A DNA stretch of 61,155 nt, filler included, from Fonticula-like sp. SCN 57-25 (GCA_001724245.1; 4 parts of 4 records of this genome joined end to end with filler, not necessarily neighbours in it); one strand, 5' to 3'. Positions 12,233 through 46,353 are shown, numbered from the whole stretch's first letter. Numbers and translations are program-made. The notes: a model not told the origin generated them from the sequence alone.

Positions 12233-14000
12233 ATGTCGGAGGGCGATGCCGGGCCGCCGGCCAAGACGGTGTCCCTGGAGGACATTCTGGACCCGTCCGA
12301 CCGCCGCATCAAAGAGGACATGCTCCGCATGATTCTCAGTTACCTTAATGAGGAGGGACTCCATACAGCGCGCCTCGCGCTCCAGGATGAGGCCAATGTA
12401 AAGGCCGCCACGGCGCGCGAGCGGCACGGCGACCTGCGCGCCGTCCGAAAGTCAATGAAAGGTGCGTGACGCGGTCATCCTGCATGTTTCTCTAACGCTG
12501 AGCTATTCATTTGTAGACGGTGACTGGCCCGAGGTTGAACGTCTTATTCAAAAGTTGAATATCCGCAACAACAAGGCGTTCCTCTACTCTGTGTACAAGC
12601 AGCAGTTCCTCGAGATGGTGGATGCCGGCGAGCTCCAGAAAGCGTTTGCGTTCCTCACCAAGCGCTTGAAGCCGCTCGAGAACATGCAGAGCTCGCCGGA
12701 CGAGTTCCGTGACCTCTGCTACCTGCTCACCTGCAAGTCGGTCCAGGATGCGCCGTCCTTCCGCAACTGGGAAGGGATAGGGCCATCGCGCGAGAGCCTA
12801 TTGGAGCGCTTTCAGAGCATGCTCGAAATTGAGACGCAGGACACGCAACGTACGCCATGCTGATCCCTCTTTGTGTATTAACACGCCATTCGCAGCCACC
12901 GAGCAGCTACCAACGGGCCGCCTTTTGACACTGATGCGCCAGGCGCTCGCGTACCAGCTCGAATTTTCCGCACACCGCCCGAAAGCGCTCCCAAAGATCA
13001 CCACGTACGCCCCGTATTGCTCTTTCGCCGCCTGTTCTAACAGTCGCCCAGTCTTCTCGAGGATTATGCGACGTACGTCGTACCGAACTCGTGCAAGCGC
13101 GTGCTTGAAGGTCACCTTGGCAACGTCAAGTGCGTCGAATTCATTGGCGAGGAAGGCGCGTACCTTGCGTCCGGCTCGAGCGACAATACGATTCGTATCT
13201 GGAAGACGTCCGACGGGACGTGCGGCGCAGTCCTTCAGGGCCACTCGTCGCGCGTGTGGGACCTGTCCTCGAGCCGCGACGGCGCTCACCTTGCGTCTGC
13301 CTCGGCCGACGGCACTGTGCGGCTATGGGACGTGCGCTCGCACCGGCCGAGCAGCATCGCGACGTACGCGCTCGACCAGTCGGACATTTACACCGTGTCG
13401 CACCACCCGCTGCAGCGGCACCTCGTCACGGGCGGGTACGACAAGCTCGTGCGGCTCGTCGATATCGGCACGGGCGAGGTGCTCAAGGCGCTCGCCGGGC
13501 ACCGCGCGCCCGTGTGCTCCACCATCTTTAACCCGTACGGAAACCTCGTCATCTCGAGCAGCAAGGACCACACGGTCCGCTTCTGGGACATGACGTCGGG
13601 CATCTGCGTCAACTCGATTGGCGCGCACCAGCACCTCGGTGAAATTACATCTATTGCCATCAGCAGCAACGGCCAGCAGCTGCTTACGTGCTGCAAGGAC
13701 AATAGCAATCGGCTGTGGGACCTGCGCATGCTCACGTGCAAAAAGAGGTTCAAGGGTCACCAAAACACATCGAAAAACTTTATTCGCGCCGGGTTTGGCG
13801 CCAAGACGACCGTCGTCGGAGGCTCAGAGGACGGCATTGTCTACATTTGGGACACGGAAAAGGGGCAGGTGCTGCAAAAGCTGAGGGGGCACGACGGGAT
13901 CGTGTACGAGACCGCCTGGAATACCAACCAGGCCGTGCTCGCCAGCTGCAGCGAGGACCGCACCGTCAGGCTATGGTCCTACGACGAGAAGAAGACCTAG
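12233..14000 (+). CDS. LisH-CTLH + WD40 repeat protein; 3 introns
   Basis: MLRMILSYLNEEG LisH, CTLH-like segment (GDWPEVE...YKQQFLE), about 7 GH-WD repeats. Confidence 0.88.
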
Positions 14001-14230: not shown

Positions 14231-15762
14231 TTACGCTTCGCAGAACGCCGTGATGGCAGTCCTCAAGGCGGCCGCAAAATCGTCCGGCGAAGCGTCGGCG
14301 GGTACCTGCAGGCGGCACACGCCGACCCACTTGACCTCGGGGCCCTTTGTAAAGGTGAGCAGCTCGCCGCCCTGCAGCGCCAGCCGACGCGTGCAATAGT
14401 ACAAAAACTGCAGGACGCCCGTGTCCGACAGCGAATGAACAAAACTAAGGCACAAAAGTGTTAGTCGTCGAAAGACAGCCAGAAAATTTCGTACGAAACG
14501 AGGTTGCCAAGCAGCTGCTCGTCGTCAGACTCGTTGGCGCCCTCGTCGTTCTGGATCGCAAACCGCTCGAGGATGGTCTCGCGCAGCACCGCCACCGGCT
14601 GGTACTGCCCCGCGAGGCAGAGGAAGAGCGCAAAAGTCGGCGTCCGCTTCATCATCGCCCTCATGTCGTCATCGAAAGCGACGGCGTTCTGTAGCGCCGT
14701 CATGGCGGGATCGTATTGCTTTACCCACAGACGCACCGCCCGCTCGCACTTGGCCACGCCTTCCGCCTCAAATGCCTGCTTGCGCGCACGGAGCGCCGCA
14801 AGCGGGTCAACCGACTGGATCGCATCGATCGACGTCGGCGGGCCGCGCGCCAGCCAGTCAACAAACAGAAGCGGGACTTCGACGCCGAGCGGCGTGCCAA
14901 AGATCAGCGAGCGCGCAATGATACGGCCAAGAGGAAGAAGCGACTCTGCCGACGCGCTGCGCAGAGAACAATAAATCAGCGGCTTGCAAAAGAAAAACAA
15001 AAAGCGTACTCTGGGNTCGGCGCAGATGGCGCGCATGGCGGTGCCGACGACGCTCGCCCAGCTCATCGCCACGCCGTCGACGTAGATCATCCAGTTTGAC
15101 CGGAGCTCGTCGTGGCGCAGCTGCCCGATGGTAGCCAGCAGCGACGCGTGGAGCGACGGCGACGACGACAGCTCGAGGACAACGGCCGAGCGCCTCTGCT
15201 GCGCCGTGCGGCTGTCGTGCAGCTTTGACAGCTGCGTCGCGCCTTGCAGGTCGTCGCTGTGCAGGAACGGGTTCAGGAGCGCCGCAGAGGCCGGCACGCG
15301 CTGACACGGCTGAGCGCGCTGAAATAAAGTCAGCTCAAGCCCACATAAAAATGGCGCGGAATCGTACCAGGAACGAGCTGACAAAGGAGGAAAGGTACTT
15401 TGACGCGAACCGCGGCGCGATCTTTGGCATGACGCAGCGGCGGCCCACGTAGACGACGCCCTCGTTATCGATGCTGAGCATGTCGGCGACGACGCAGCCG
15501 GCGAGGTACATGTCGCTCGCAGGGCTGGCGGGCAGGCTCGCGCGGCGCGTGTCGGCGCGCCCGCGGTCCTGCTTGCCGGTCGCCGAAAAGAACCCGACAA
15601 TGACGGGTACCACCTCGTCCACCTCGCGGCCGGCCGTCATGATAATGTTGCTCGTGGAGAGCGAGCCGTGCGTCACGTTGTGGGACGCGAGTACGGCAAG
15701 CGACTGGAGAATGTCGTGGATAATGCCCTGCATCGTCTTTTGCGACGCCGTCGTCGCATTCC
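14231..15762 (-). CDS. Pseudokinase C-lobe fused to a degenerate HECT-like domain (5' end lost in gap)
   Basis: HGSLSTSNII, SDMYLAGCVV and QRVPASAALLNPFL kinase subdomains, then LGRIIARSLIFGTPL..P, LQFLYYCT and VCRLQVP...S.DDFAAALRTAI HECT-like motifs. Confidence 0.55.
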
Positions 15763-15788: not shown

Positions 15789-15888
15789 NNNNNNNNNNNN
15801 NNNNNNNNNNNNNNNNNNNNNNNNNNNNNNNNTTAATTAATTAANNNNNNNNNNNNNNNNNNNNNNNNNNNNNNNNNNNNNNNNNNNN
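15789..15888. other. Assembly gap with TTAATTAATTAA linker
   Basis: 100-nt N run with a central all-frame-stop spacer. Confidence 0.98.
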
Positions 15889-15894
15889 ACGTAC

Positions 15895-16641
15895 CCATTT
15901 GCTCGGTAAGGTGCTGCCACTTGAACTTTGGAAGGTACTTTACGTTCCAAATGTCGTCGTAGTAATAGTCGCGCTTCTTGCCGCCTATTGTGCACGGTCA
16001 GCGCTCAATTACACTCAAAAAAACATTATAAACACTCTAATAAAGCACAAATTGTATATATTTGTACCGATTGTCTGGTTGTTTAGCATGGCGGCGGTGC
16101 GCTTGGCGATGCGCTTGTCGAGGAATTCGACCCATCCTTCGACGTAAAACTTTTTGCGGTTGCCACCGAGCTTTCTCCTCTTTGCGCGCGCCTTGGCGTC
16201 CTCCTGCTTGAGGTACACGCGGCCGATGGCGCCGTACCGCGACAGCAGGCTGCGCACCTTTTGAGGCTTCATGTACGGCGGGATGCGCGACAGGTAGACG
16301 ACGCCGGTGCTCTCCATGCGCTCCTGGAACTCTTTCAGCTCCTCGGGGCTCAGCGCCTTGACGCCTTTGCGCTTCTTGGGCTGAAGCGTGGGGATGTCAT
16401 TGCCATCATCCTCGCCATCGTCGTCATCATCTTGGTCGTCATCGTCGTCATCATCGTCGTCGTCGTCGTCCTTGTCATCGTCCTCATCGTCCTCAACTTC
16501 ATCATCATCATCAATTTCATCCTCCTCCTGCTCGCTTCCCGAGTATGACTGCTCCTCGTCCTCAAAGCGCTCGTCGTCCTCTTCTTCCTCCTCGACGACA
16601 GGCGCACGAGCGTGCTTCATGATGGCCGCGCCGCGTGGCAT
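15895..16641 (-). CDS. ESF2: Pre-rRNA processing protein ESF2/ABT1 (3'-truncated at gap)
   Basis: Acidic N-terminus, TGVVYLSRIPPYMKP, EGWVEF, GGKKRDYYYDDIWNVKYLPKFKWQHLTEQ. Confidence 0.93.
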
Positions 16642-16711: not shown

Positions 16712-17092
16712 ATGATCCTCGGGATCGGCCAGGATGTTGTGAGCCTGGCGCGCTTTGCGGGCGTCGTGGAGCGCGTTGGTGCGCAGCGGCTTGCCAGGCG
16801 GATACTGGCGACGAGCGAGCAAAAGGAATTGGAAATGATCCACGCGCGGGACCGGCAAGTAAGACTGTTGGCCGCGCGGTTCGCCGTCAAGGAGGCATTC
16901 TTCAAGGCGACGGCGGGCATCGGCGAGGCAACATGGAAAGAGGTTCACGTGGAGAAAAGTGACAGGGGAGCGCCGCTTTTGCGTGTTTCTGAGCGCCTTA
17001 CAACGCAGCTCGGCATCGGTCGGTCACACGCGACGATCGCACATGATGGCGACTACCTCGTCGCTTCGGTGATCCTCGAGAGTAAAGAATGA
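16712..17092 (+). CDS. AcpS-type 4'-phosphopantetheinyl transferase (PPT2-like); intronless
   Basis: MILGIGQDVV, AARFAVKEAFFKA, GAP, TIAHDGDYLVASV. Confidence 0.92.
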   Translation: MILGIGQDVVSLARFAGVVERVGAQRLARRILATSEQKELEMIHARDRQVRLLAARFAVKEAFFKATAGIGEATWKEVHVEKSDRGAPLLRVSERLTTQLGIGRSHATIAHDGDYLVASVILESKE

Positions 17093-17722
17093 GGGGATCA
17101 TGTGCGTGTATGGGAAGCGGACGCGGTTTGCGTGTTGTGTGTATTTTTATGTGTTGGTTGTATAGCCAGATGTCCATGCGCGTTGACTTGCGGTGTGGCC
17201 TTTTGTTTTCGTTGTACATTATGATATGAACTACTTTGAGTAAAATACAACATTGAGTGACCTCTTGACATGCCAATGACCCTAGGCTTTCTACTTCTAA
17301 TACTTGGAATGAGAATTAAAAGACGAGCAAAAAAGAACAATACTGAAATAGTGCGTTTCGTTGTCATAAACTGGACTCGTGTGCGACGAGAGGGATTCTG
17401 GCCGCATGCTCCATAATTGGTACACTACGTACCGGCTTCCTATGCATATACATACAAATATATGGATGCTAGACGTAAATAGTACAAAGAGCACTCGTTT
17501 CTGTCTAGTATGATACCGGTATCATACAGTATGATATGATATGTATGAAAGAAACACATTGACCAATGACACTCCAACATTGTACAGTGGGACCAAATGG
17601 ATTATTGCAAGCTAGCCTTGTCGTGAATGTTGCCTATTTCGTGGCCACAACTCCACCTACGCACATGACACAAAAACACAATGTCGTCAAAAAGAGCGGC
17701 GCGATGTCTTCCTGCCATATGA

Positions 17723-17754
17723 TCACGTGCTTTTGTGATTTTGGGTCACGTGAT
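17723..17754 (+). promoter_or_regulatory. Paired CACGTG E-boxes upstream of WD40-SAM copy 1
   Basis: TCACGTG at 17723 and GTCACGTGAT at 17745; the pair is conserved in all three copies. Confidence 0.7.
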
Positions 17755-17849
17755 CATTGGTTTGCGTTCACGGCGCCGGCGCCGCGCATCTGCGGTAGCA
17801 TCTGTCGTTTGACTTGTTTTGGAGAGAAAGCAGAGGTAGTGACGCTGGT

Positions 17850-19928
17850 ATGGCACAGCAGTTGGCCAAAAAGACGAATATTGAGCTTCACGCCAAGGGG
17901 GTGCGTCGACGTTTTGGTGAGCTGCTGGTCTGTTGCTGATTGCGTTCGCAGGTTTTTGGTTGTGCGATTTCCCCCAATGGCACTTTGTTGGCAACTGGGA
18001 GTATTGACAAGTCACTCTGCATCACCAACATCGTCACGCAGGAAAAGGTGTACAAAGTGGAGTGTGATGATGAAGTACGTTCTTGTCTGTCCTTTTTCAT
18101 TCTAACACCATCAAGGTGCGGTTGGTCGCTTGGTCGCCCGACGGGACCCGTCTTGTCGCCGTGACACTTGGTGGCAGCGTCATCCAAGTAACAAAGAACA
18201 ATGCGCACTCGACCGTGTACAAGATCAACGCGGCTGTATGCATCATGCTTGCCGTTCATTCTTTGCTTATATTATGCTCTAGTTATGGGGATGCGCGTTC
18301 AGTCCCAGTGGGATCGTTGCCGTCGGTGGGAATGATCAAGCAGTTACACTCTTGGATCCATCCAACAACTATTCGGTTGTCGAGACATTATCTGGATTGG
18401 CTGAAAAAGTACGCTATTGTATGTTTACTTGCTGATGTTTACCGTGGCATGTGCAGGTGAGGTGTTTTGCCTTTTCACCCGACGGGAATCTTCTTGCCGT
18501 GGGATGTTTTCATGGCCACATGTATATTTATGGACTGACCAATGGCAAGTGGGCGCGAGTGGCTTATAACAAGTATCACTCTAAATGGGTACGGTGTTGC
18601 CTTTTATATTCTCATTATTAATTGTTACAAGGTCATGTCACTCTCCTTTAGTCCCTCTGGCCGCATGCTGTTGGCCACAAGTGATGACATCACTGCCTCC
18701 ATCTGGAATGTTCCATCTGGAACCACATGGCCATCAACTCCTCACGTGACACTTATAGAACACTCGCATCAAGTCAATGGCGGCGCTTTTCTTGGTGATG
18801 AGTCGCATGCCATCACTGGGTCGGCAGATGAATCCCTTAACATTTGGCGCACCTCTGATGGAGAGCAAACTGTAAACTACGAATGTGATAAATCGGTGCG
18901 TCACTTGTGCATCTCTATTTTGCTCACTATTTTCTTTCTCTTCAGGCATGGTCACTATCATATCATGCTGCATCTGGAGTCATTGCCGTTGGTACTAGTA
19001 AGGGTCATGTTGAAATATGGCAAACAGCGGCATGTGATCCGCGTAGTATTTCTGCCGCTCTTAAATCGCATGCTTGCATCCGTACTAGATTGAGCGTTGC
19101 GCAGGCACAAGCCAATGATATCCAAGCATCATTAAAGAAAGCAGATGATAAATTACGTCAGAAGATGTCACGTGAACAAGAACTGAAGCGCTCAATTGCC
19201 GACCTAGAGGAAAAACGTGCGCACTTTCTCCTTTATAAGCAGCATACTGATTGTGTCTAGTGGCGAGTGAGAAAGAGGCATTAAAGAAATTGCAAACCGG
19301 TGACTATATTGCACAGTCACGTGTGTATAGTGAGCTGAATGAGCGCCACAGTGAACTACTTGGCATCATCAATGTTTGCACGCAGACACTTGACAGCTTG
19401 ACAGACTGTCTGTCTGTTTCCGGATTGGAGGATCTCCGCGGCGACACCTTCAAGGAGTGGTTGTGCGACATTGGCATGAGCAAACTGCAAACTTCATTAA
19501 AAGATATTGACGGTGTTTCCCTGACGATGCTAAATGTGGGTGACGTCACGGAGTATGACGTCACCTTCAATGATGCCGCTACCCTTCACTTGCGCGGCTA
19601 TATTGCGCAATACAAGCTGAGTGATGACAGCGCATTTGCGCCGCCCAATGAGACTGTCCTGTCATGGGACGAAGTGCAAACTGCAAACTGGATCAAGACA
19701 CTTGGTGCCCCATATGAGTCTCTTTCCTCTGCTGGCTGGCATGGTGCTGCACTGTGTTCTCTTTCGCCGCCACGTGTCATTGAAGCCGGCAAGGGATCGC
19801 TCAAGGCACCAGACGCAGTAAGGTTCATTGGACTTGTGCGTGCAAAGCGGAGAGAACTTGACGGCGAAAAGGACGATTGGGTGTCAAAGTGGACCGGCAC
19901 GGCAACAATTGAATTACAGGCTGTATAG
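17850..19928 (+). CDS. WD40(x7)-coiled coil-tandem SAM-like protein, copy 1 (exons 17850-17900, 17952-18074, 18116-18235, 18283-18408, 18457-18588, 18632-18895, 18946-19216, 19261-19928)
   Basis: GT-AG splicing gives an open frame; WD repeats (CAISPNG, AWSPDG, AFSPSG, TGSAD); heptad region; SAM-like FKEWLCDIGM..IDGVSLTML and VLSWDEVQTANWI..WHGAALCSL. Confidence 0.85.
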
Positions 19929-20634
19929 TTTTCCTGTCTCTTTCAGTTCAGCCAAGCCTCTTTTCCCTCCATTATTTTCTTTTTCCACCATTTCTCTTGT
20001 TTTATTTACTTACAATTTTCTGATTGGACTGTGAGACAATTTTTCCCTTTTCGCCCACATTCCCTCTCTATTTATCCATCTTCTTCCACCCTCGTGAATC
20101 AACCATAATCACAAACAGAAGAGATCCGATGCTGAACTGCGCTGTGAGGGATGCCCGGCCACCCGCAAAACTGAATCACATGTTCAATTATGTCGTCCAA
20201 TCCTATTGAGCGTGTGGGCTGCGACGCGCGACAGGCATGCCTCTAGGGTAACATGTGGGCTATCAAGGTGGGTCGCTCCGCACGCGGACGGCGGCCAGCT
20301 GGCAGGCACAATAAGCGGACGGCATCAGATAAAGACATGTATACACTCGCGGGCATTGGCTGGAATTCTCTGCAGGCAGGGTGGTAGGGCGATGGACGAT
20401 GCGTGGTTGATCTTGCTTGATCACACAGTACTCGTTAGAGCCAACTTAGGAGGGCGATGAGGGAGGATGGATGGCGATGAGGAAGAGTAAACGGACTAAG
20501 GGGATGCAATTGCGTGACAGGCACATTATTGTTGAATATTGTTTATCTTTTGCACGGCACTGAAAAGATACCGCAAAGAGAGGCACGAAAACGTGCACTT
20601 GCATTTTTGCAACCTGTCCTGTGTGAGCAGTGAG

Positions 20635-20664
20635 CACGTGATGATGAAAGTTTAGTCACGTGAT
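20635..20664 (+). promoter_or_regulatory. Paired CACGTG E-boxes upstream of copy 2
   Basis: CACGTG at 20635 and GTCACGTGAT at 20655. Confidence 0.7.
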
Positions 20665-20741
20665 TTTTGCTTTGCGCGCCAACGACCACCACGGCGGCCA
20701 GCCGCGGCCTCAAGGAACCGTAGAGCGAGTGACGCTTAGCA

Positions 20742-22837
20742 ATGTCGCATCCGTTGGCCACAAGGGCGAATATTGAGCTGCACACGGATGGGGTGCGTTT
20801 ATTTTGTGTGATAAGCTGCTGATCTGATGGTGATCGTGTTTTCAGATTCAAGGGTGCGCGATTTCCCCCGACGGCACGTGGGTGGCATCTGGTAGTGACG
20901 ACAAGTCGCTCTGCATCACCAATATTACCACGCAGGAAAAGGTGTACACTGCAGAGTGTGATAGTCAAGTGCGTGCTTTTTTGCCCTGTCTTGTTTTGAC
21001 ACTTCATCAAGGTGTGGGGCGTCGCTTGGTCATCCGACAGAAAGACTCTGATCGCTGTGACAACCGGTGGCAGTGTCTTCCAAGTCACGAACAACAATGC
21101 GCACTCGTCCGTGTACAAAATCGACAAGGCTGTATGTATCATGTTCGCCGCTCGTTCTTTGCTCATCCCTTGTTTAGTTGGGTGGATGCGCGTTCAGTCC
21201 CAGTGGGATCGTTGCAGTCGGTGGAGTTGATAGAGCAGTCACGCTCTTGGACCCAACCAACAACTATTCGGTTATTGAAACATTATCTGGATTGGCTGAT
21301 GAAGTATGATATTGGATGTTTGTTGCTGATGTTTACCGTGGCCTGTGCAGGTGAGATGTCTCGCGTTTTCTCCTGATGGGAATCTGCTTGCCGCGGGATG
21401 TGATGGTGGTCACATGTATATTTATGGACTTTCCGATGACAAGTGGGCACAAGTATTTTACAAAAATAATCATTCTAAATGGGTACGATATTGGCTTTTA
21501 TATTCTCTCCATGGCAAATTAACTATTACTAGATATGGTCACTTTGCTTCAGCCCCTCTGGGCGCATGCTATTGGCCTTGAGTGATGACTACACAGCTTC
21601 CATCTGGAATGTTCCATCTGAAACCACGTGGCCAGAGGATCCTCACGTGATACTCGAGGGACACACGCGTCAAGTTAATGGCGGCGCTTTTCTCGGTGAT
21701 GAGTCACATGTCATTACTGGGTCTGCCGATCGATCCCTTCGCATTTGGCGCACTTCTGATGGAGTGCAAACTGCAAAATACGAATGTGATAAATCGGTGC
21801 GCCACGTGTGCGCCTTTTATTTGCTCATTCTTTAATGCTATTTAGGTGTGGTCGCTGTCATATCATGCTGCATCTGGCGTCATTGCAGTTGGCCTTGCCG
21901 ATGGTCACATTGATTTATGGCAAACAGCCGAATATGATTCGTTTGATATTTCTGCAGCACTTCAATCGCATGCTTGCTTTCGTACTCGATTGAGTGTTGC
22001 GCAGTCACGAGCCAATGATATCCAATCATTAATTGAAAAGGCGGATAGTGAATTACGTCAGCAGATGTCACGTGAGCAAGAACTGATACGTTCGATCGCC
22101 GACCTCGAGGAAAAATGTGCGCACTTTCTATTTTATAAGCATCCTACTGATTGTATCTAGTGGCGATCGAGAAAAAGGCCCTAAACGAACTGCAAACTGC
22201 CGACTATATTGCACAGTCAAGTGCTTTAAAAAACCTAACGGAGCGCCACAATGCTCTTCTGGGTGTTATTCATGGCTGCACACAGATACTAGACAGCTTG
22301 ACAGATTGCCTATCTGTTTCCGGATTGGAAGATGTTCGCGGCGACGCCTTTAACGAATGGCTCTGTGACATTGGCATGAGCAAACTGCAAACTTCTTTAA
22401 AAGATATTGACGGTGTTTCCCTGACGATGCTTAATGTGGGCGACGTCATGGAGTATGACGTCACCTTCAACGATGCCACTGCCCTTCAACTGCGCGGCTA
22501 CATGGCGCACTACAAGCTGAGTGATGACAGCGCATTTGCCCCGCCAATTGGGAGTGTATTGTCATGGGACGAAGCGCAAACTGCAAACTGGATTGCTTCA
22601 CTTGGTGACTCTTATGCTTGTTTGTCTGATGCTGGCTGGCATGGTGCTGCACTTTGCTCTCTTTCACCGCCACGTGTTGTTGAAGCCGGCAAAGGAGCAC
22701 TCAAGGTACCAGATGCTGTAAAGTTTATAGGACTGTTACGCGCAAAGCGATCCGAAACAGACGGCGATAAGGCCACGTGGGTGTCAAAGTGGACCGGCAC
22801 AAGCGCCATTGACAATCAAGCTGTACTTTTTTTATAG
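20742..22837 (+). CDS. WD40-coiled coil-tandem SAM-like protein, copy 2
   Basis: Same 8-exon structure as copy 1, starting MSHPLATRANIELHTDG|IQGCAISPDG; frame appears intact. Confidence 0.85.
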
Positions 22838-23240
22838 TGTTTCTTACCATTCTCATTAATCGTCTTTGTTGATACCGGATATCATGCTCTTGTGGTTACA
22901 CTTTTCAACAAGCTATGATTATTAATTTATAATTTTGATATGTTACCGGTATTGTATGTATCATATTCAAACGGCAAAACAACAAGAATTAGATGTGAAT
23001 TTGAGTTTGAATTTTAGTTGAACCACCAGTACCGGGTACGGCATCTGACCGGACAGACGAGACGTTCAGATGATGCTTGCGCAATGCTGCCGACGCTAAG
23101 AAAGAGATGCAGCTTGGCCACAGCCGTACCGCCCGCGTTATGCGCAGAATGATCGAGGTAGTGCAACCCGCCGGCTTACTTTCAGCTGGGCAGCACACGC
23201 CATCCTTAGAAGATCATTATTGTGCTGATCGCCATATGAT

Positions 23241-23270
23241 CACGTGATGAAATAAATTTAGTCACGTGAT
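23241..23270 (+). promoter_or_regulatory. Paired CACGTG E-boxes upstream of copy 3
   Basis: CACGTG at 23241 and GTCACGTGAT at 23261. Confidence 0.7.
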
Positions 23271-23349
23271 CTTTGCTTTGCGCCAACGACTGGCGACCGC
23301 CCACATCCACGGCGGCCTCGAGCAAAAGTATAGGAAGTGGCGCTTAGCA

Positions 23350-25410
23350 ATGGCGCATCCATTGGCCAAAAAGGCTACTATTGAGTTGCACACGAAGGGG
23401 GTGCGTGAAGGTTTTGGTGAGCTGCTGATCTGACGCTGCTTGTGTTCGCAGGCGGACGGGTGTGCGATTTCCCCCAATGGCACTTGGGTCGCAACTGGCA
23501 GTCAAGACAAATCGATCTGCATCACCGACATTGCCACGCAGGAAAAGGTGTACACTGTAGAGTGTGATAATCAAGTGCGTGCTTGTGTGTCCTTCTTTGT
23601 TCTGACGCCTTTTCAAGGTGCGTGGTATCGCTTGGTCGCCCGACGGAACCCATCTGATCGCCGTGACGACTAGTGGCAGTGCCATCCAAGTCACAAACAA
23701 CGACGCGCACTCGACCGTGTACAAGATTGATAAGCCTGTATGAATTATGTTTGCCGCTCGTTCGTTGCTCACCCCTTGTCTAGTTGTGGGGGTGCGCGTT
23801 CAGCCCCAGTGGGATCCTTGCCGTCGGTGGAAATGATCAAGAAGTTACACTATTGGACCCATCCAACAACTATTCAGTTATTGAGATACTATCTGGATTT
23901 GCTGATAAAGTATGCTATTGTATGTTTACTTGTTGATGTTTACCGTGTATGTGCAGGTCAGGTGTCTCGCGTTTTCTCCTGATGGGAATCTTCTTGCCGC
24001 GGGATGTTATGATGGCCACATGTACATCTATGGACTGACCAATGGCAAGTGGGCACGAGTATTAACTAACATGTATCATTCTAAATGGGTACGATATCCA
24101 TATTGCTTTTTATATTCTCATTGCTAATTATTACTAGGTCATGTCACTTTGCTTCAGTCCCTCTGGTCGCATGCTACTGGTCACAAGTGAAGACATGACT
24201 GCATCCATCTGGAATGTTCCAAATGGAACCACGTGGCCATCCACTCCTCACGTGACTCTTAAGGGGCACACGAATCAAGTCAATCGCGGCGCCTTTCTCG
24301 GCGACGAATCGCATGTCATCACTGGGTCGGCTGATAAATCACTACGCATTTGGAGCACTTCTGATGGAGTGCAAACTGTAAACCACGAATGCAAACCGGT
24401 GCGTCACTTGTGGTCTTTTTTTTTTGCTTATTTCTTTGATGCTATTTAGGCATGGTCACTGTCTTACCATGCTGCATCTGGTATCATTGCCACTGGTACG
24501 AATACGGGTCAAGTTGGAATATGGCAAACAGCCGCATATGATCCATGTGATGTTTCTGCGGAACTTCCGTCACACGCATGCGTCCGTACTAGATTGAGAA
24601 TCGCACAGCTTCAATCAAATGCTGCCGAAACAACGCTCAGCAAGGTAGACAATGGATTACATCTGCGGATGTCACGTGTACAGGAACTGAAGCGATCGAT
24701 TGCCGACCTCGAGGCCAAACGTACGCATTTAAGGATCACGTAGTTATACAACTAACATGTGTACAGTAACGGGCGAGAAGAAGGAGCTAGCGGAACTGCA
24801 AACTGACGAATTGCGTCATTTCAGTAATGTGACGGAGCGCCATAATGCTCTGCTTGGCATCATCAATGTCTGCACGCAGACCCTTGACAGCTTGACAGAT
24901 TGCCTGAAGACTTACGGATTGGAGGATCTTCGAGGAGACGCCTTTAAGGAATGGCTATGTGACATTGGCATGAGCAAACTGCAAACTTCATTGAAAGATT
25001 TTGATGGCAGCACTCTGACAATGCTTAACGTGGGTGACGTCATGGATAATGACGTTACCTTTAACGATGCCGCTGCTCTTCACTTGCACGGCTACATTGC
25101 GCACCACAAGCTAAGTGATGACAGCGCATTTGCCCCGCCCAGTGAGACTGTCCTATCATGGGACGAAGTGCAAACTGCAAACTGGATAGCTTCCCTTGAT
25201 GACCAATATGATTGTCTTGTTGATGCTGGCTGGCATGGCGCTGCTCTATGCTCACTTTCGCCGCCACGTGTGGTCGAGGCGGGCAAGGGCGCACTCAAGG
25301 CAACCGAAGCGGCAAAGTTCATTGGACTTGTGCGTGCAAAGCGGAGAGAAATTGACGGCGAAAAGGACGAATGGGTGTCAAAGTGGAGCGGGGCAAACGT
25401 CATTGCTTGA
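23350..25410 (+). CDS. WD40-coiled coil-tandem SAM-like protein, copy 3
   Basis: Same 8-exon structure, starting MAHPLAKKATIELHTKG|ADGCAISPNG; only small in-frame deletions seen. Confidence 0.85.
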
Positions 25411-25685
25411 CAATTATACCTTTTTTATCTGATATGTATTCTGCTCCCTTGAAATGAACAATACAACAAAGCACTTCTCAAAAATCTACCCTGGAATCTG
25501 CCCCGTATCCGCTGCTCGTCCAATCACGTCGCGTTTCCCCTGTCGACGCGTCGGAGGCGGTGATCGAGTCCAAGTCGCCTTCGTGCTTGCGCCACCTACA
25601 CGAGCGACGACTACGGCGAAGAGCAACGTGGTGTCACAAGCACACAACACTTTTAAAAACTTTTATTATTTGTTTCTTTTTCGCG

Positions 25686-26745
25686 ATGCCAATGGACGAT
25701 CTGAGCGATGCCGAATCGGTGTCGGCCTTTTTTGATGCCGAGCCTCGCCCCGACTCACTCACGGCATCGCTCGCCTCTGTGCAGCACTTTATCGATGTCC
25801 ACTCTGTAAGCGACCGTCGTTTTGTCCTTGTGACCGTGCGCCTTTCCCGATCCCCTTTTCATCATGCTCATGTTCACCTTTGCGTATCATTGGCAGTCTG
25901 GCGGCACGACTGTGGCCATGGAGCGCAACACGGTGCGCTTCATCGACAATTTCAGCGCCGGCACGCGCGGCTCCGCCTCTGTCGAGTACTTTCTTCAGGC
26001 CGGCTACGTCGTGATCTTTCTTCACCGCCGCGGCAGCCTTCTCCCCTACCTGCGCAACATCAATCCCCACGAGCTGCTGAATCAGCTTTCCGTCGCGCCC
26101 GATGACTCTGTTTCGCGTACGCCGCATCTCTATTTCAATATGAATATTATTAACAAATTTCATTCTAAACGTACAGTAAAGGGCGATGCGCGCCGCACGA
26201 TGGCGCATGCACTTCGCGATTACGAAATGTACCGCTCTCGCCTTTCCTTCATCCCCTTTGGCACTGTCACCGAGTACCTCTACCTCCTCCGCGGCATCTC
26301 CCAGCTCCTCTCCCCCCTCGGCCCCCGCGCCATGCTTTACCTCGCCGCGGCCGTGTCCGACTTTTACATCCCCTTTGCCGACATGAACGAGCACAAGATC
26401 CAGTCGCGCGATGGCGGCCTGCTAATGTCGCTCAAGCAGGTGCCAAAGATGCTGGCGGCGCTCACCGCCGAATGGTCGCCAAGCGCGTTCATAGTCACGT
26501 TCAAGCTCGAGACGGACGAGAATCTTTTATTGGCAAAGTGCCGCGCGGCGCTCGACAGGTACAGGCATCAGGTGACCATTGGCAATATTCTTCATACGAG
26601 AAAGGATTGCGTCATTGTTGTGCATAAGGAGGAGAGCGAGCCGGTCGAGCGCATCGTGAGGGACCCGGCGCTAAGTGATATTGAGGATGCGCTCATTTTG
26701 AGGCTTGAGAGACTTCATACGGCATTCATCGAGCACAACGCCTAA
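25686..26745 (+). CDS. PPCS: Phosphopantothenate--cysteine ligase; 2 introns
   Basis: [58 protein letters not shown]. Confidence 0.95.
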
Positions 26746-30745: not shown

Positions 30746-30845
30746 NNNNNNNNNNNNNNNNNNNNNNNNNNNNNNNNNNNNNNNNNNNNTTAATTAATTA
30801 ANNNNNNNNNNNNNNNNNNNNNNNNNNNNNNNNNNNNNNNNNNNN
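30746..30845. other. Assembly gap with TTAATTAATTAA linker
   Basis: 100-nt N run. Confidence 0.98.
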
Positions 30846-46253: not shown

Positions 46254-46353
46254 NNNNNNNNNNNNNNNNNNNNNNNNNNNNNNNNNNNNNNNNNNNNTTA
46301 ATTAATTAANNNNNNNNNNNNNNNNNNNNNNNNNNNNNNNNNNNNNNNNNNNN
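46254..46353. other. Assembly gap with TTAATTAATTAA linker
   Basis: 100-nt N run. Confidence 0.98.

Follow-up and report, generated by a model that had tools for sequence, protein, structure and literature searches.

Tandem WD40/SAM paralogues in a Fonticula-like eukaryote, with positive selection at codons of the predicted propeller top face

The window analysed here, meaning the whole 61,155-nucleotide stretch of DNA from Fonticula-like sp. SCN 57-25 (GCA_001724245.1; four records joined end to end with filler), contains an array of three tandem paralogous genes. Each of the three proteins is predicted to be a seven-blade WD40 propeller followed by a coiled coil and two SAM-fold domains. 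We consider it likely that they belong to a lineage-restricted, tandemly expanding family of receptor-like or adaptor-like proteins in which top-face codons of the propeller are positively selected and the scaffold and SAM module are constrained. A few top-face codons, at the positions called R1-2, R1, v-2, D-1 and D+1, have been replaced repeatedly at 3-4 times the synonymous rate. Purifying selection acts on the propeller scaffold, meaning its strands and bottom loops, and on the SAM module. Family members have duplicated in tandem and exchanged segments, and some appear to be pseudogenes. The top face is the putative ligand site, by analogy with the solved WD40 complexes described in Wu et al. 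2012 (PMC3419727).

The array consists of three direct head-to-tail DNA copies at spacings of ~2,900 and ~2,600 bp, with identities of 64-90%. Since the DNA is eukaryotic, the array reads as broken open reading frames (ORFs) under the bacterial code. The gene models were built by carrying GT-AG boundaries across the DNA alignment of the three copies. This gives three + strand genes of 584, 587 and 575 amino acids, all open after splicing, each divided into 8 exons by 7 GT-AG introns of 41-53 nt. The intron positions are common to copies 1-3 and the metagenome relatives described below. Only 813 and 512 bp separate the stop of one copy from the ATG of the next. A first-pass annotation, made from the sequence alone, had begun its call at 17952, which is the first base of copy 1 exon 2. 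The genes and their propellers are as follows.

17850..19928, + strand: copy 1 gene, 584 aa; spliced frame open, 7 of 7 introns GT-AG, 41-51 nt; exons 17850-17900, 17952-18074, 18116-18235, 18283-18408, 18457-18588, 18632-18895, 18946-19216 and 19261-19928
20742..22837, + strand: copy 2 gene, 587 aa; spliced frame open; exons 20742-20792, 20846-20968, 21012-21131, 21178-21303, 21351-21482, 21533-21796, 21846-22116 and 22161-22837
23350..25410, + strand: copy 3 gene, 575 aa; spliced frame open; exons 23350-23400, 23452-23574, 23618-23737, 23784-23909, 23957-24088, 24138-24398, 24450-24720 and 24767-25410
17850..19029, + strand: copy 1 seven-blade WD40 propeller, residues 1-300, from Pfam and the blade stack
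20742-21929 and 23350-24533, + strand: the equivalent propellers of copies 2 and 3
17901-17951, 18075-18115, 18236-18282, 18409-18456, 18589-18631 and 18896-18945, + strand: copy 1 introns 1-6, phase 0

The ATG is 17 codons before blade 1 in all three copies. Each of blades 1-4 has its own exon, blades 5 and 6 share exon 6, and blade 7 is encoded at the start of exon 7. In a Pfam scan of the copy 1 exons, PF00400 matched two stretches of exon 6 (E 9.9e-10, 39 bits with a cut-off of 27). Exons 2 and 5 gave PF00400 matches under the cut-off, and exons 3 and 4 matched other propeller models weakly. The seven units stack in WD40 register, and in an AlphaFold2 model of exon 6, whose predicted local distance difference test score (pLDDT) is 92.4, eight strands fall where that register places them. 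From the stacking and this model of blades 5-6 we infer that the seven blades close into a ring. Introns 1-6, which are those within the propeller, are all in phase 0, and each is placed exactly at the junction of R1-2 with the conserved Val that opens strand a. The single exons of blades 1-4 are therefore symmetric, at 120-132 nt, a layout that would permit blade swapping. No recent blade shuffling is seen, since the blades within a protein are on average only 22-23% identical to one another (maximum 42%, over 26 anchored positions).

The register was fixed before any counting. It is anchored on the strand-a Val and the b-c turn Asp, such that R1 is Val+1, R1-2 is Val-1 and D-1 is Asp-1; D+1 is on the other side of the Asp, and v-2 is the D-A loop residue preceding R1-2. 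R1, R1-2 and D-1 make up the hotspot triad of the literature. The top-face class was likewise set beforehand as the D-A loop, R1 and the b-c turn, which makes 55 codons, with 244 elsewhere and 67 in bottom loops. The register is backed by the Pfam match, by the DSSP strands of the exon 6 model and by definitions given in Wu et al. 2012 (PMC3419727), where R1 and R1-2 are the residues on either side of strand a's first bulky residue, D-1 is the one just ahead of the tetrad Asp, and these positions are described as partner-contacting.

The first-pass annotation had reported that the three copies differ repeatedly at predicted top-face binding positions, quoting four blade-start triplets and seven b-c loop strings, and that two SAM-like cores are invariant. 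All 4 triplets and all 7 strings are in homologous columns exactly as written, and the core strings EWLCDIGMSKLQTSLKD and AGWHGAALCSLSPPRV, at columns 428 and 520, show no difference among the three copies. The recurrence at the top face is borne out by counting. Variation affects 29 of the 55 top-face codons; the corresponding figures are 72 of the 244 codons elsewhere (Fisher p 0.0015) and 17 of the 67 bottom-loop codons (Fisher p 0.0026). All three copies differ from each other in 10 of 55 top-face columns and 7 of 244 others (p 0.00014), and D-1 varies in 6 of 7 blades. The whole-gene Nei-Gojobori ratio of nonsynonymous to synonymous change (dN/dS, or omega) is 0.28-0.31 at a dS of ~0.5, so all three genes are under constraint. 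Split by structural element, the ratio reaches 0.78 in the b-c turn and 0.69 in the D-A loop but stays at 0.10 in a-b loops and at 0.14-0.16 in strands a and c. Taken alone, then, the window has top-face positions evolving about neutrally with the rest constrained, and the case for selection rests on relatives found in metagenomes.

A scan of metagenome contigs, seeded with 8 close sequences, found relatives encoded in 22 of 251 candidate stretches. They come from two assemblies and are 51-78% identical in exon 8. At least 18 distinct family loci are in one assembly, and two metagenome contigs carry two genes in tandem. The exons of the relatives were rebuilt by homology with each splice site checked, which made 4 loci usable over the whole propeller, 7 more over all or part of blades 5-7, and 12 for complete exon 8. 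In the family alignment, the strands and bottom loops are near-constant and R1, R1-2, D-1, D+1 and v-2 take many states. Mean entropy is 1.8-2.2 bits at D-1, v-2, R1-2 and R1 versus 0.3-0.6 for a-b loops and strands a-c.

Three of the relatives have defects that could make them pseudogenes or could be assembly errors. L005 has an in-frame stop in exon 6, L008 has an early stop in exon 8, and L012 has no GT donor at intron 7 (1743-1777) and reads through it in frame.

The codon models were run with our own GY94/F3x4 likelihood, which returns an M0 log likelihood of -4581.588 where IQ-TREE returns -4581.587. Set A is the full propeller (7 sequences, 299 codons), and set B is blades 5-7 (14 sequences, 116 codons), with L017, which has blade 7 only, excluded. 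The L005 stop codon was masked as a gap. Set C is exon 8, that is, the coiled-coil end and tandem SAM (15 sequences, 221 codons), and serves as an internal control on both method and data. Excluded from set C were the L008 exon 8 with its early stop, the partial exon 8s of L019, L020 and L021, and the exon 8 fragments of L011, L013, L015, L016, L018, L022 and the first gene of L020. The tests are listed with twice the difference in log likelihood (2dlnL).

Set A, M2a against M1a: 2dlnL 43.1, p 4e-10
Set A, M8 against M7: 2dlnL 57.1, p 4e-13
Set A, M8 against M8a: 2dlnL 45.8, p 6.5e-12
Set B, M2a against M1a: 2dlnL 27.7, p 1e-6
Set C, M2a against M1a: 2dlnL 0.00, p 1

A class of codons with omega above 1 is present. 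In set A, M2a puts 8.4% of codons at an omega of 4.06, and M8 puts 10% at 3.65. Fourteen set A codons have an M8 posterior of at least 0.9 for omega above 1, and they are not scattered over the structure. Thirteen are among the 55 top-face codons and 1 is among the remaining 244 (Fisher p 9e-10), while none of the 67 bottom-loop codons is selected. Nine sites of set B have a posterior of at least 0.8, and 8 of them are on the top face. The selected codons are given here by copy 1 residue and first base.

17895..18951, + strand: span of the 14 selected codons in copy 1, M8 posterior at least 0.9
17955, 18286 and 18949: R1 residues F19, W100 and W274
18072, 18406 and 18586: R1-2 residues E58, K140 and W184
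18003, 18167 and 18508: D-1 residues I35, L76 and F158
18337: D+1 residue Q117
17895, 18767 and 18890: D-A loop v-2 residues K16, H230 and K271
18562: strand d residue A176

It could be argued instead that constraint is only relaxed at the top face, where the loops would drift in paralogues that have lost their need for one particular partner, and that omega above 1 is an artefact of recombination, misalignment, exon edges or codon frequencies. Several observations lean that way and weigh against positive selection. In the three window pairs, hotspot-triad dN over propeller dS is 1.10, 0.59 and 0.95 (Fisher p 0.43-0.95), that is, dN about equal to dS, and with the three copies alone M2a against M1a gives a 2dlnL of 6.8 (p 0.033) with a degenerate, unstable estimate. 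The whole 55-codon top class averages an omega of 1.40 in set A (p 0.094 against 1), and in set B its omega is 0.97. Neither average exceeds 1 significantly, so the signal is carried by a subset of its sites. The partition model is taken as evidence only of a difference between the top class and the rest, which is strong (rest omega 0.42 in set A, p 2.5e-8, and 0.33 in set B, p 1.8e-6), and not of omega above 1. Five of the 14 selected sites are in the last two codons of an exon. Branch lengths were fixed in proportion to the M0 tree (the IQ-TREE codon tree) and the posteriors are naive empirical Bayes; the relatives are low-coverage metagenome contigs with homology-built gene models; and the placing of the top face relies on the WD40 sequence register and not on a three-dimensional model of the whole propeller. 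The paralogues also recombine, with a breakpoint in exon 7 whose maximum chi-square was reached by 0 of 1000 permutations.

The recombination leaves a real mosaic. Copy 1 resembles copy 3 more closely over the propeller but copy 2 more closely from the middle of exon 7 on, and intron 7 is common to copies 1 and 2 at 17 informative sites versus 1 and 2 for the other pairings. The mosaic zone is at ~19040-19260 in copy 1 (exon 7 tail and intron 7) and at 21940-22160 in copy 2. This points to gene conversion or crossover between neighbouring copies. Recombination can inflate site-model tests, and because these paralogues recombine, a pairwise test that uses no tree was added. By this test, 19 of the 21 pairs have a dN at the hotspot triad greater than dS over the whole propeller. 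The closest and youngest pair, L004 and L019 (dS 0.12), has a hotspot dN/dS of 5.3, from 21.5 nonsynonymous differences in 49.5 hotspot sites versus 23.7 synonymous differences in 210.3 (Fisher p 7e-7).

Relaxed constraint also fares poorly on the size of the effect, since drift cannot yield an omega of 3-4, and on where the effect is absent, with none of the exposed bottom-loop codons selected (their omega is 0.10-0.64) and no signal when the SAM control is run through the same code. Furthermore, M2a against M1a on set A was significant in every variant tried, including one that drops exon-edge codons as a guard against splice-site errors at the D-A loops. The variants were these.

F61 codon frequencies: 2dlnL 49.4
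Without the long L012 branch: 2dlnL 23.5, 8 of 9 sites top-face
Without columns at most 2 from an indel: 2dlnL 21.8, 4 of 4 sites top-face
First half on its own tree: 2dlnL 41.9
Second half on its own tree: 2dlnL 12.4
Without the last three codons and the first codon of each exon: 2dlnL 20.5, 3 of 4 sites top-face

We therefore regard an account by drift and artefact as very unlikely. The first-pass annotation had proposed diversifying selection on ligand specificity. The selection stands once the relatives are added and does not stand from the three window copies alone; the ligand specificity we only infer.

Granted positive selection on the top face, it could have come in bursts just after each duplication, as neofunctionalization towards fixed cellular partners, and have since ended, leaving a conserved adaptor family with no ongoing recognition race. 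The window copies would suit such a history. They are old (dS ~0.5, intron divergence 0.33) and have no hotspot excess among themselves, and the exon 8 tree groups copy 2 with metagenome locus L001 instead of the neighbouring copies, which suggests that some duplications predate the split from that relative. Site models on paralogues cannot tell episodic from continuing selection. However, the strongest excess is found in the youngest pair, L004 and L019, in which 14 of 20 hotspot residues already differ versus 43 of 279 residues elsewhere. The size of the family, its tandem arrangement in both sources and its apparent pseudogenes also fit a birth-and-death profile. A specialization that is already finished thus seems unlikely to us.

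Downstream of the propeller, the features of the constant end are as follows.

19030..19406, + strand: copy 1 linker and coiled coil, approximately residues 301-411; the exon 7 part is judged by eye only
19407..19616, + strand: copy 1 SAM-like domain 1, by fold match, with the invariant EWLCDIGMSKLQTSLKD
22307-22516 and 24901-25110, + strand: equivalents of SAM-like domain 1 in copies 2 and 3
19644..19889, + strand: copy 1 SAM-like domain 2, by fold match, with the invariant AGWHGAALCSLSPPRV
22544-22789 and 25138-25383, + strand: equivalents of SAM-like domain 2 in copies 2 and 3

The linker and coiled coil are the most divergent part of the three copies, with 55 of 116 columns varying. Several relatives (L006, L003, L009, L021 and L017) have Pro/Ala/Gln-rich inserts of very variable length between blade 7 and the coiled coil. 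The L006 insert (~390-650) is built on a repeated AAPQ-type unit and is ~85 residues long. The window copies are without inserts.

The exon 8 module is a tandem SAM at the level of predicted fold. Its AlphaFold2 model (221 aa, from a 24-row alignment) is all-helical with a pLDDT of 94.1, and has a long helix at model residues 13-52, in the coiled-coil part. SAM 1 (model residues 49-118) aligns to solved SAM domains with Z 8.4-8.7 and a root-mean-square deviation (rmsd) of 1.4-1.9 A over 63-65 residues. SAM 2 (model residues 128-209) aligns with Z up to 9.2 and rmsd 1.8 A over 65 of 69 residues. Taken together, the two halves align at Z 8-9.2, with an rmsd of 1.4-2.0 A over 60-66 of 63-70 residues, and the SAM-like label of the first-pass annotation is thereby upheld for each of them. 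All 50 of the 50 realigned fold matches listed contain SAM, as single SAM domains, tandems or full-length SARM1/TIR-1. The best Foldseek matches are the SARM1 tandem SAM domains at a weak E of 0.02; the Foldseek E-values are weak generally, and Z 8-9 is a range that can be common for helical folds. It counts against a SAM assignment that no Pfam family, the SAM families PF00536 and PF07647 included, matched exon 8 of any of the three copies at E of 1 or below. A distant relative, P0030, comes closer, with SAM_2 at E 0.0017 and 18.9 bits, under the 20.5 cut-off. In a protein-atlas comparison of exon 8 the best score was 0.76, below lead level, and 2 of 4 matches were SAM clusters. A prediction of self-association between two exon 8 modules scored 0.01 in a run without controls, and bears neither way.

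The exon 8 module has few known relatives: 35 of 1.84 billion representative proteins match it at E of 0.001 or below, and 0 of these are full-length annotated proteins. The nearest proteins in the database are ORF predictions in which introns have been translated, and they were used only in the exon 8 alignment. Among distant relatives of the coiled-coil/SAM-SAM module, P0030 and P0038 have a U-box at the end (PF04564, E 1e-7 and 2e-9), and P0027 has a WD40-like blade ahead of the module. The U-box relatives suggest a possible ubiquitin-ligase output for the window genes.

The closest known parallel is the HNWD family of NACHT-WD repeat genes of Podospora anserina, with HET-E and HET-D, and the HET-E analogy drawn in the first-pass annotation was apt. 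As reported in Paoletti, Saupe and Clave (2007, PMC1805685), codons 7 and 9 in the d-a loop and 25 and 27 in the b-c turn flank conserved residues, are positively selected, and lie on the top platform. These are the positions selected here: 10 of our 14 sites are at the equivalents of HNWD's four positions, again as codon pairs in the d-a loop and b-c turn on the top platform. HNWD is described there also as a multigene family with pseudogenes. The two systems differ in other respects. The window genes are without a NACHT or HET domain: the proteins start 17 residues before blade 1, the intergenic gaps are short, and Pfam finds only propeller families on the exons. They end instead in a coiled coil and tandem SAM, and their blades 1-4 are separate exons. 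HNWD repeats are reported as up to 100% identical to one another (PMC1805685), whereas the window blades have the low internal identities given above. Since the blades are not conserved internally, diversity arises between whole paralogues and not through shuffling within a pool of repeats. Shuffling of repeats in the HET-E manner was considered for these genes and rejected, as the blades are not similar to each other.

The selected codons are also the sequence-defined, partner-contacting hotspots of Wu et al. 2012 (PMC3419727). In the housekeeping WD40 proteins described there such sites are conserved, whereas in this family the same positions are the fastest evolving. Brown algal candidate immune receptors, as presented in Zambounis et al. 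2012 (PMC3341825), are similarly a receptor-like family with repeat domains in a eukaryote that is neither animal nor plant, with single repeats as single exons. Unlike these window genes, they have LRR or TPR repeats on NB-ARC or ROCO proteins, and no recent exon shuffling between blades is seen here.

With respect to the SAM module, the fold-search matches liken it to the SARM1, liprin and caskin tandems (PDB 6o0s, 6qwv, 3tad and 3sei), which have two consecutive SAM folds. In SARM1-like assemblies the SAM tandem builds a ring oligomer that has a TIR effector. Unlike SARM1, the window genes encode no ARM or TIR domain, and sequence similarity is too low for Pfam. F-box/WD40 (FBXW7) and DCAF ubiquitin-ligase receptors select their target with the WD40 top face and attach to the ligase through a constant module. 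The resemblance to these receptors would lie in the fusion of SAM-module relatives to a U-box. The three window genes differ from them in that no F-box, DDB1-binding helix or U-box was found, so that the link to ubiquitination comes from the distant relatives only.

A full-text literature search, from which subscription journals were largely absent, turned up no paper on a WD40-SAM family, or on any WD40 family other than NOD-like receptors (NLRs), with top-face selection. What surfaced for top-face WD40 selection was only the fungal HNWD/NLR case, tied to NACHT and to concerted, near-identical repeats. In the present sequences, selection falls on those four blade positions in a protein with divergent blades, no NTPase domain and a coiled-coil/SAM tail, with diversity produced by tandem gene duplication.

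Two kinds of short nucleotide element accompany the array.

17724..17752, + strand: two CACGTG palindromes (mostly TCACGTGA), 126 and 103 bases upstream of the copy 1 ATG
20635-20662 and 23241-23268, + strand: the CACGTG pairs upstream of copies 2 and 3
19480, 19676, 22380, 22576, 24974 and 25170, + strand: exact copies of GCAAACTGCAAACT, a 14-nt direct repeat of the GCAAACT heptamer
18865 and 21766, + strand: copies of GCAAACTGCAAACT with one mismatch, in blade 6

The CACGTG pairs are 85-126 bases upstream of all three start codons. Of the four relatives with 5' flank, three have CACGTG upstream of the ATG (L012, the second gene of L003, and L020) and L019 has none. The pair is probably a shared promoter element. 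GCAAACTGCAAACT has 8 matches in the window at no more than 1 mismatch, all of them in the array, versus 0.05 expected. It sits at fixed places in SAM1 and SAM2, in two reading frames, and in blade 6, and is kept in most of the relatives L001-L020. Across 13-18 paralogues, the mean major-codon share is 0.98 for the 14 codons under it versus 0.75 for 221 other codons conserved at the amino acid level, and Leu438 is CTG in 18 of 18 sequences. Because there is almost no synonymous change in the codons beneath it, GCAAACTGCAAACT may be a DNA-level or RNA-level element, under nucleotide constraint within the coding sequence.

The genes flanking the array are housekeeping-like: a 4'-phosphopantetheinyl transferase, an RRM protein and a DFP-family enzyme. 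Tblastn with the three spliced proteins found no further copy of the family in the window. It did find a WD40-like stretch at 13422-13868 on the + strand (24% identical to copy 1, E 8e-5), which is unrelated and is probably another intron-bearing WD40 gene. The G+C content is 0.48-0.50 in the array (18001-26000) versus mostly 0.55-0.66 in the flanks. A TCG/TCA trinucleotide array at 16404-16521 encodes an Asp/Glu-rich run on the minus strand, inside the ORF of the RRM protein. No Rfam family reached its gathering score in 17000-26000. Runs of N are at 15016, 15789-15888, 30746-30845 and 46254-46353, as paired 44-base blocks and one single N, for 265 bases; they are masked or unresolved stretches outside the three-gene array.

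In the reading we favor, a tandemly expanding family with a selected top face and a constrained scaffold, each paralogue would bind a different or fast-changing partner through its top face, and the constant end of coiled coil and tandem SAM would plug all paralogues into one shared assembly or effector. Tandem duplication supplies the new copies, and segments pass between neighbouring ones. In one version of the model, the proteins would be interchangeable receptors for substrates or targets of a ubiquitin-ligase type of output. That version is raised because distant relatives bear the U-box directly after the same SAM pair. A bolder proposal, which we offer as a speculation and think rather improbable, is a recognition repertoire of new architecture. 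Dozens of WD40 sensors with hypervariable top faces would feed one SAM-based assembly by way of an invariant coiled-coil/tandem-SAM plug, possibly including the SAM-SAM-U-box proteins, as an NLR-independent analogue of fungal HET-E/NWD or SARM1-type immunity or allorecognition, and the GCAAACT heptamers might guide exchange among the family's genes or the regulation of these genes.

If the favored reading is true, a propeller face can act as a variable recognition surface outside NLRs, and this poorly sampled eukaryote lineage would have a recognition or targeting system that has so far gone unstudied. The 14 residues listed above are candidate determinants of its specificity, and they can be tested.

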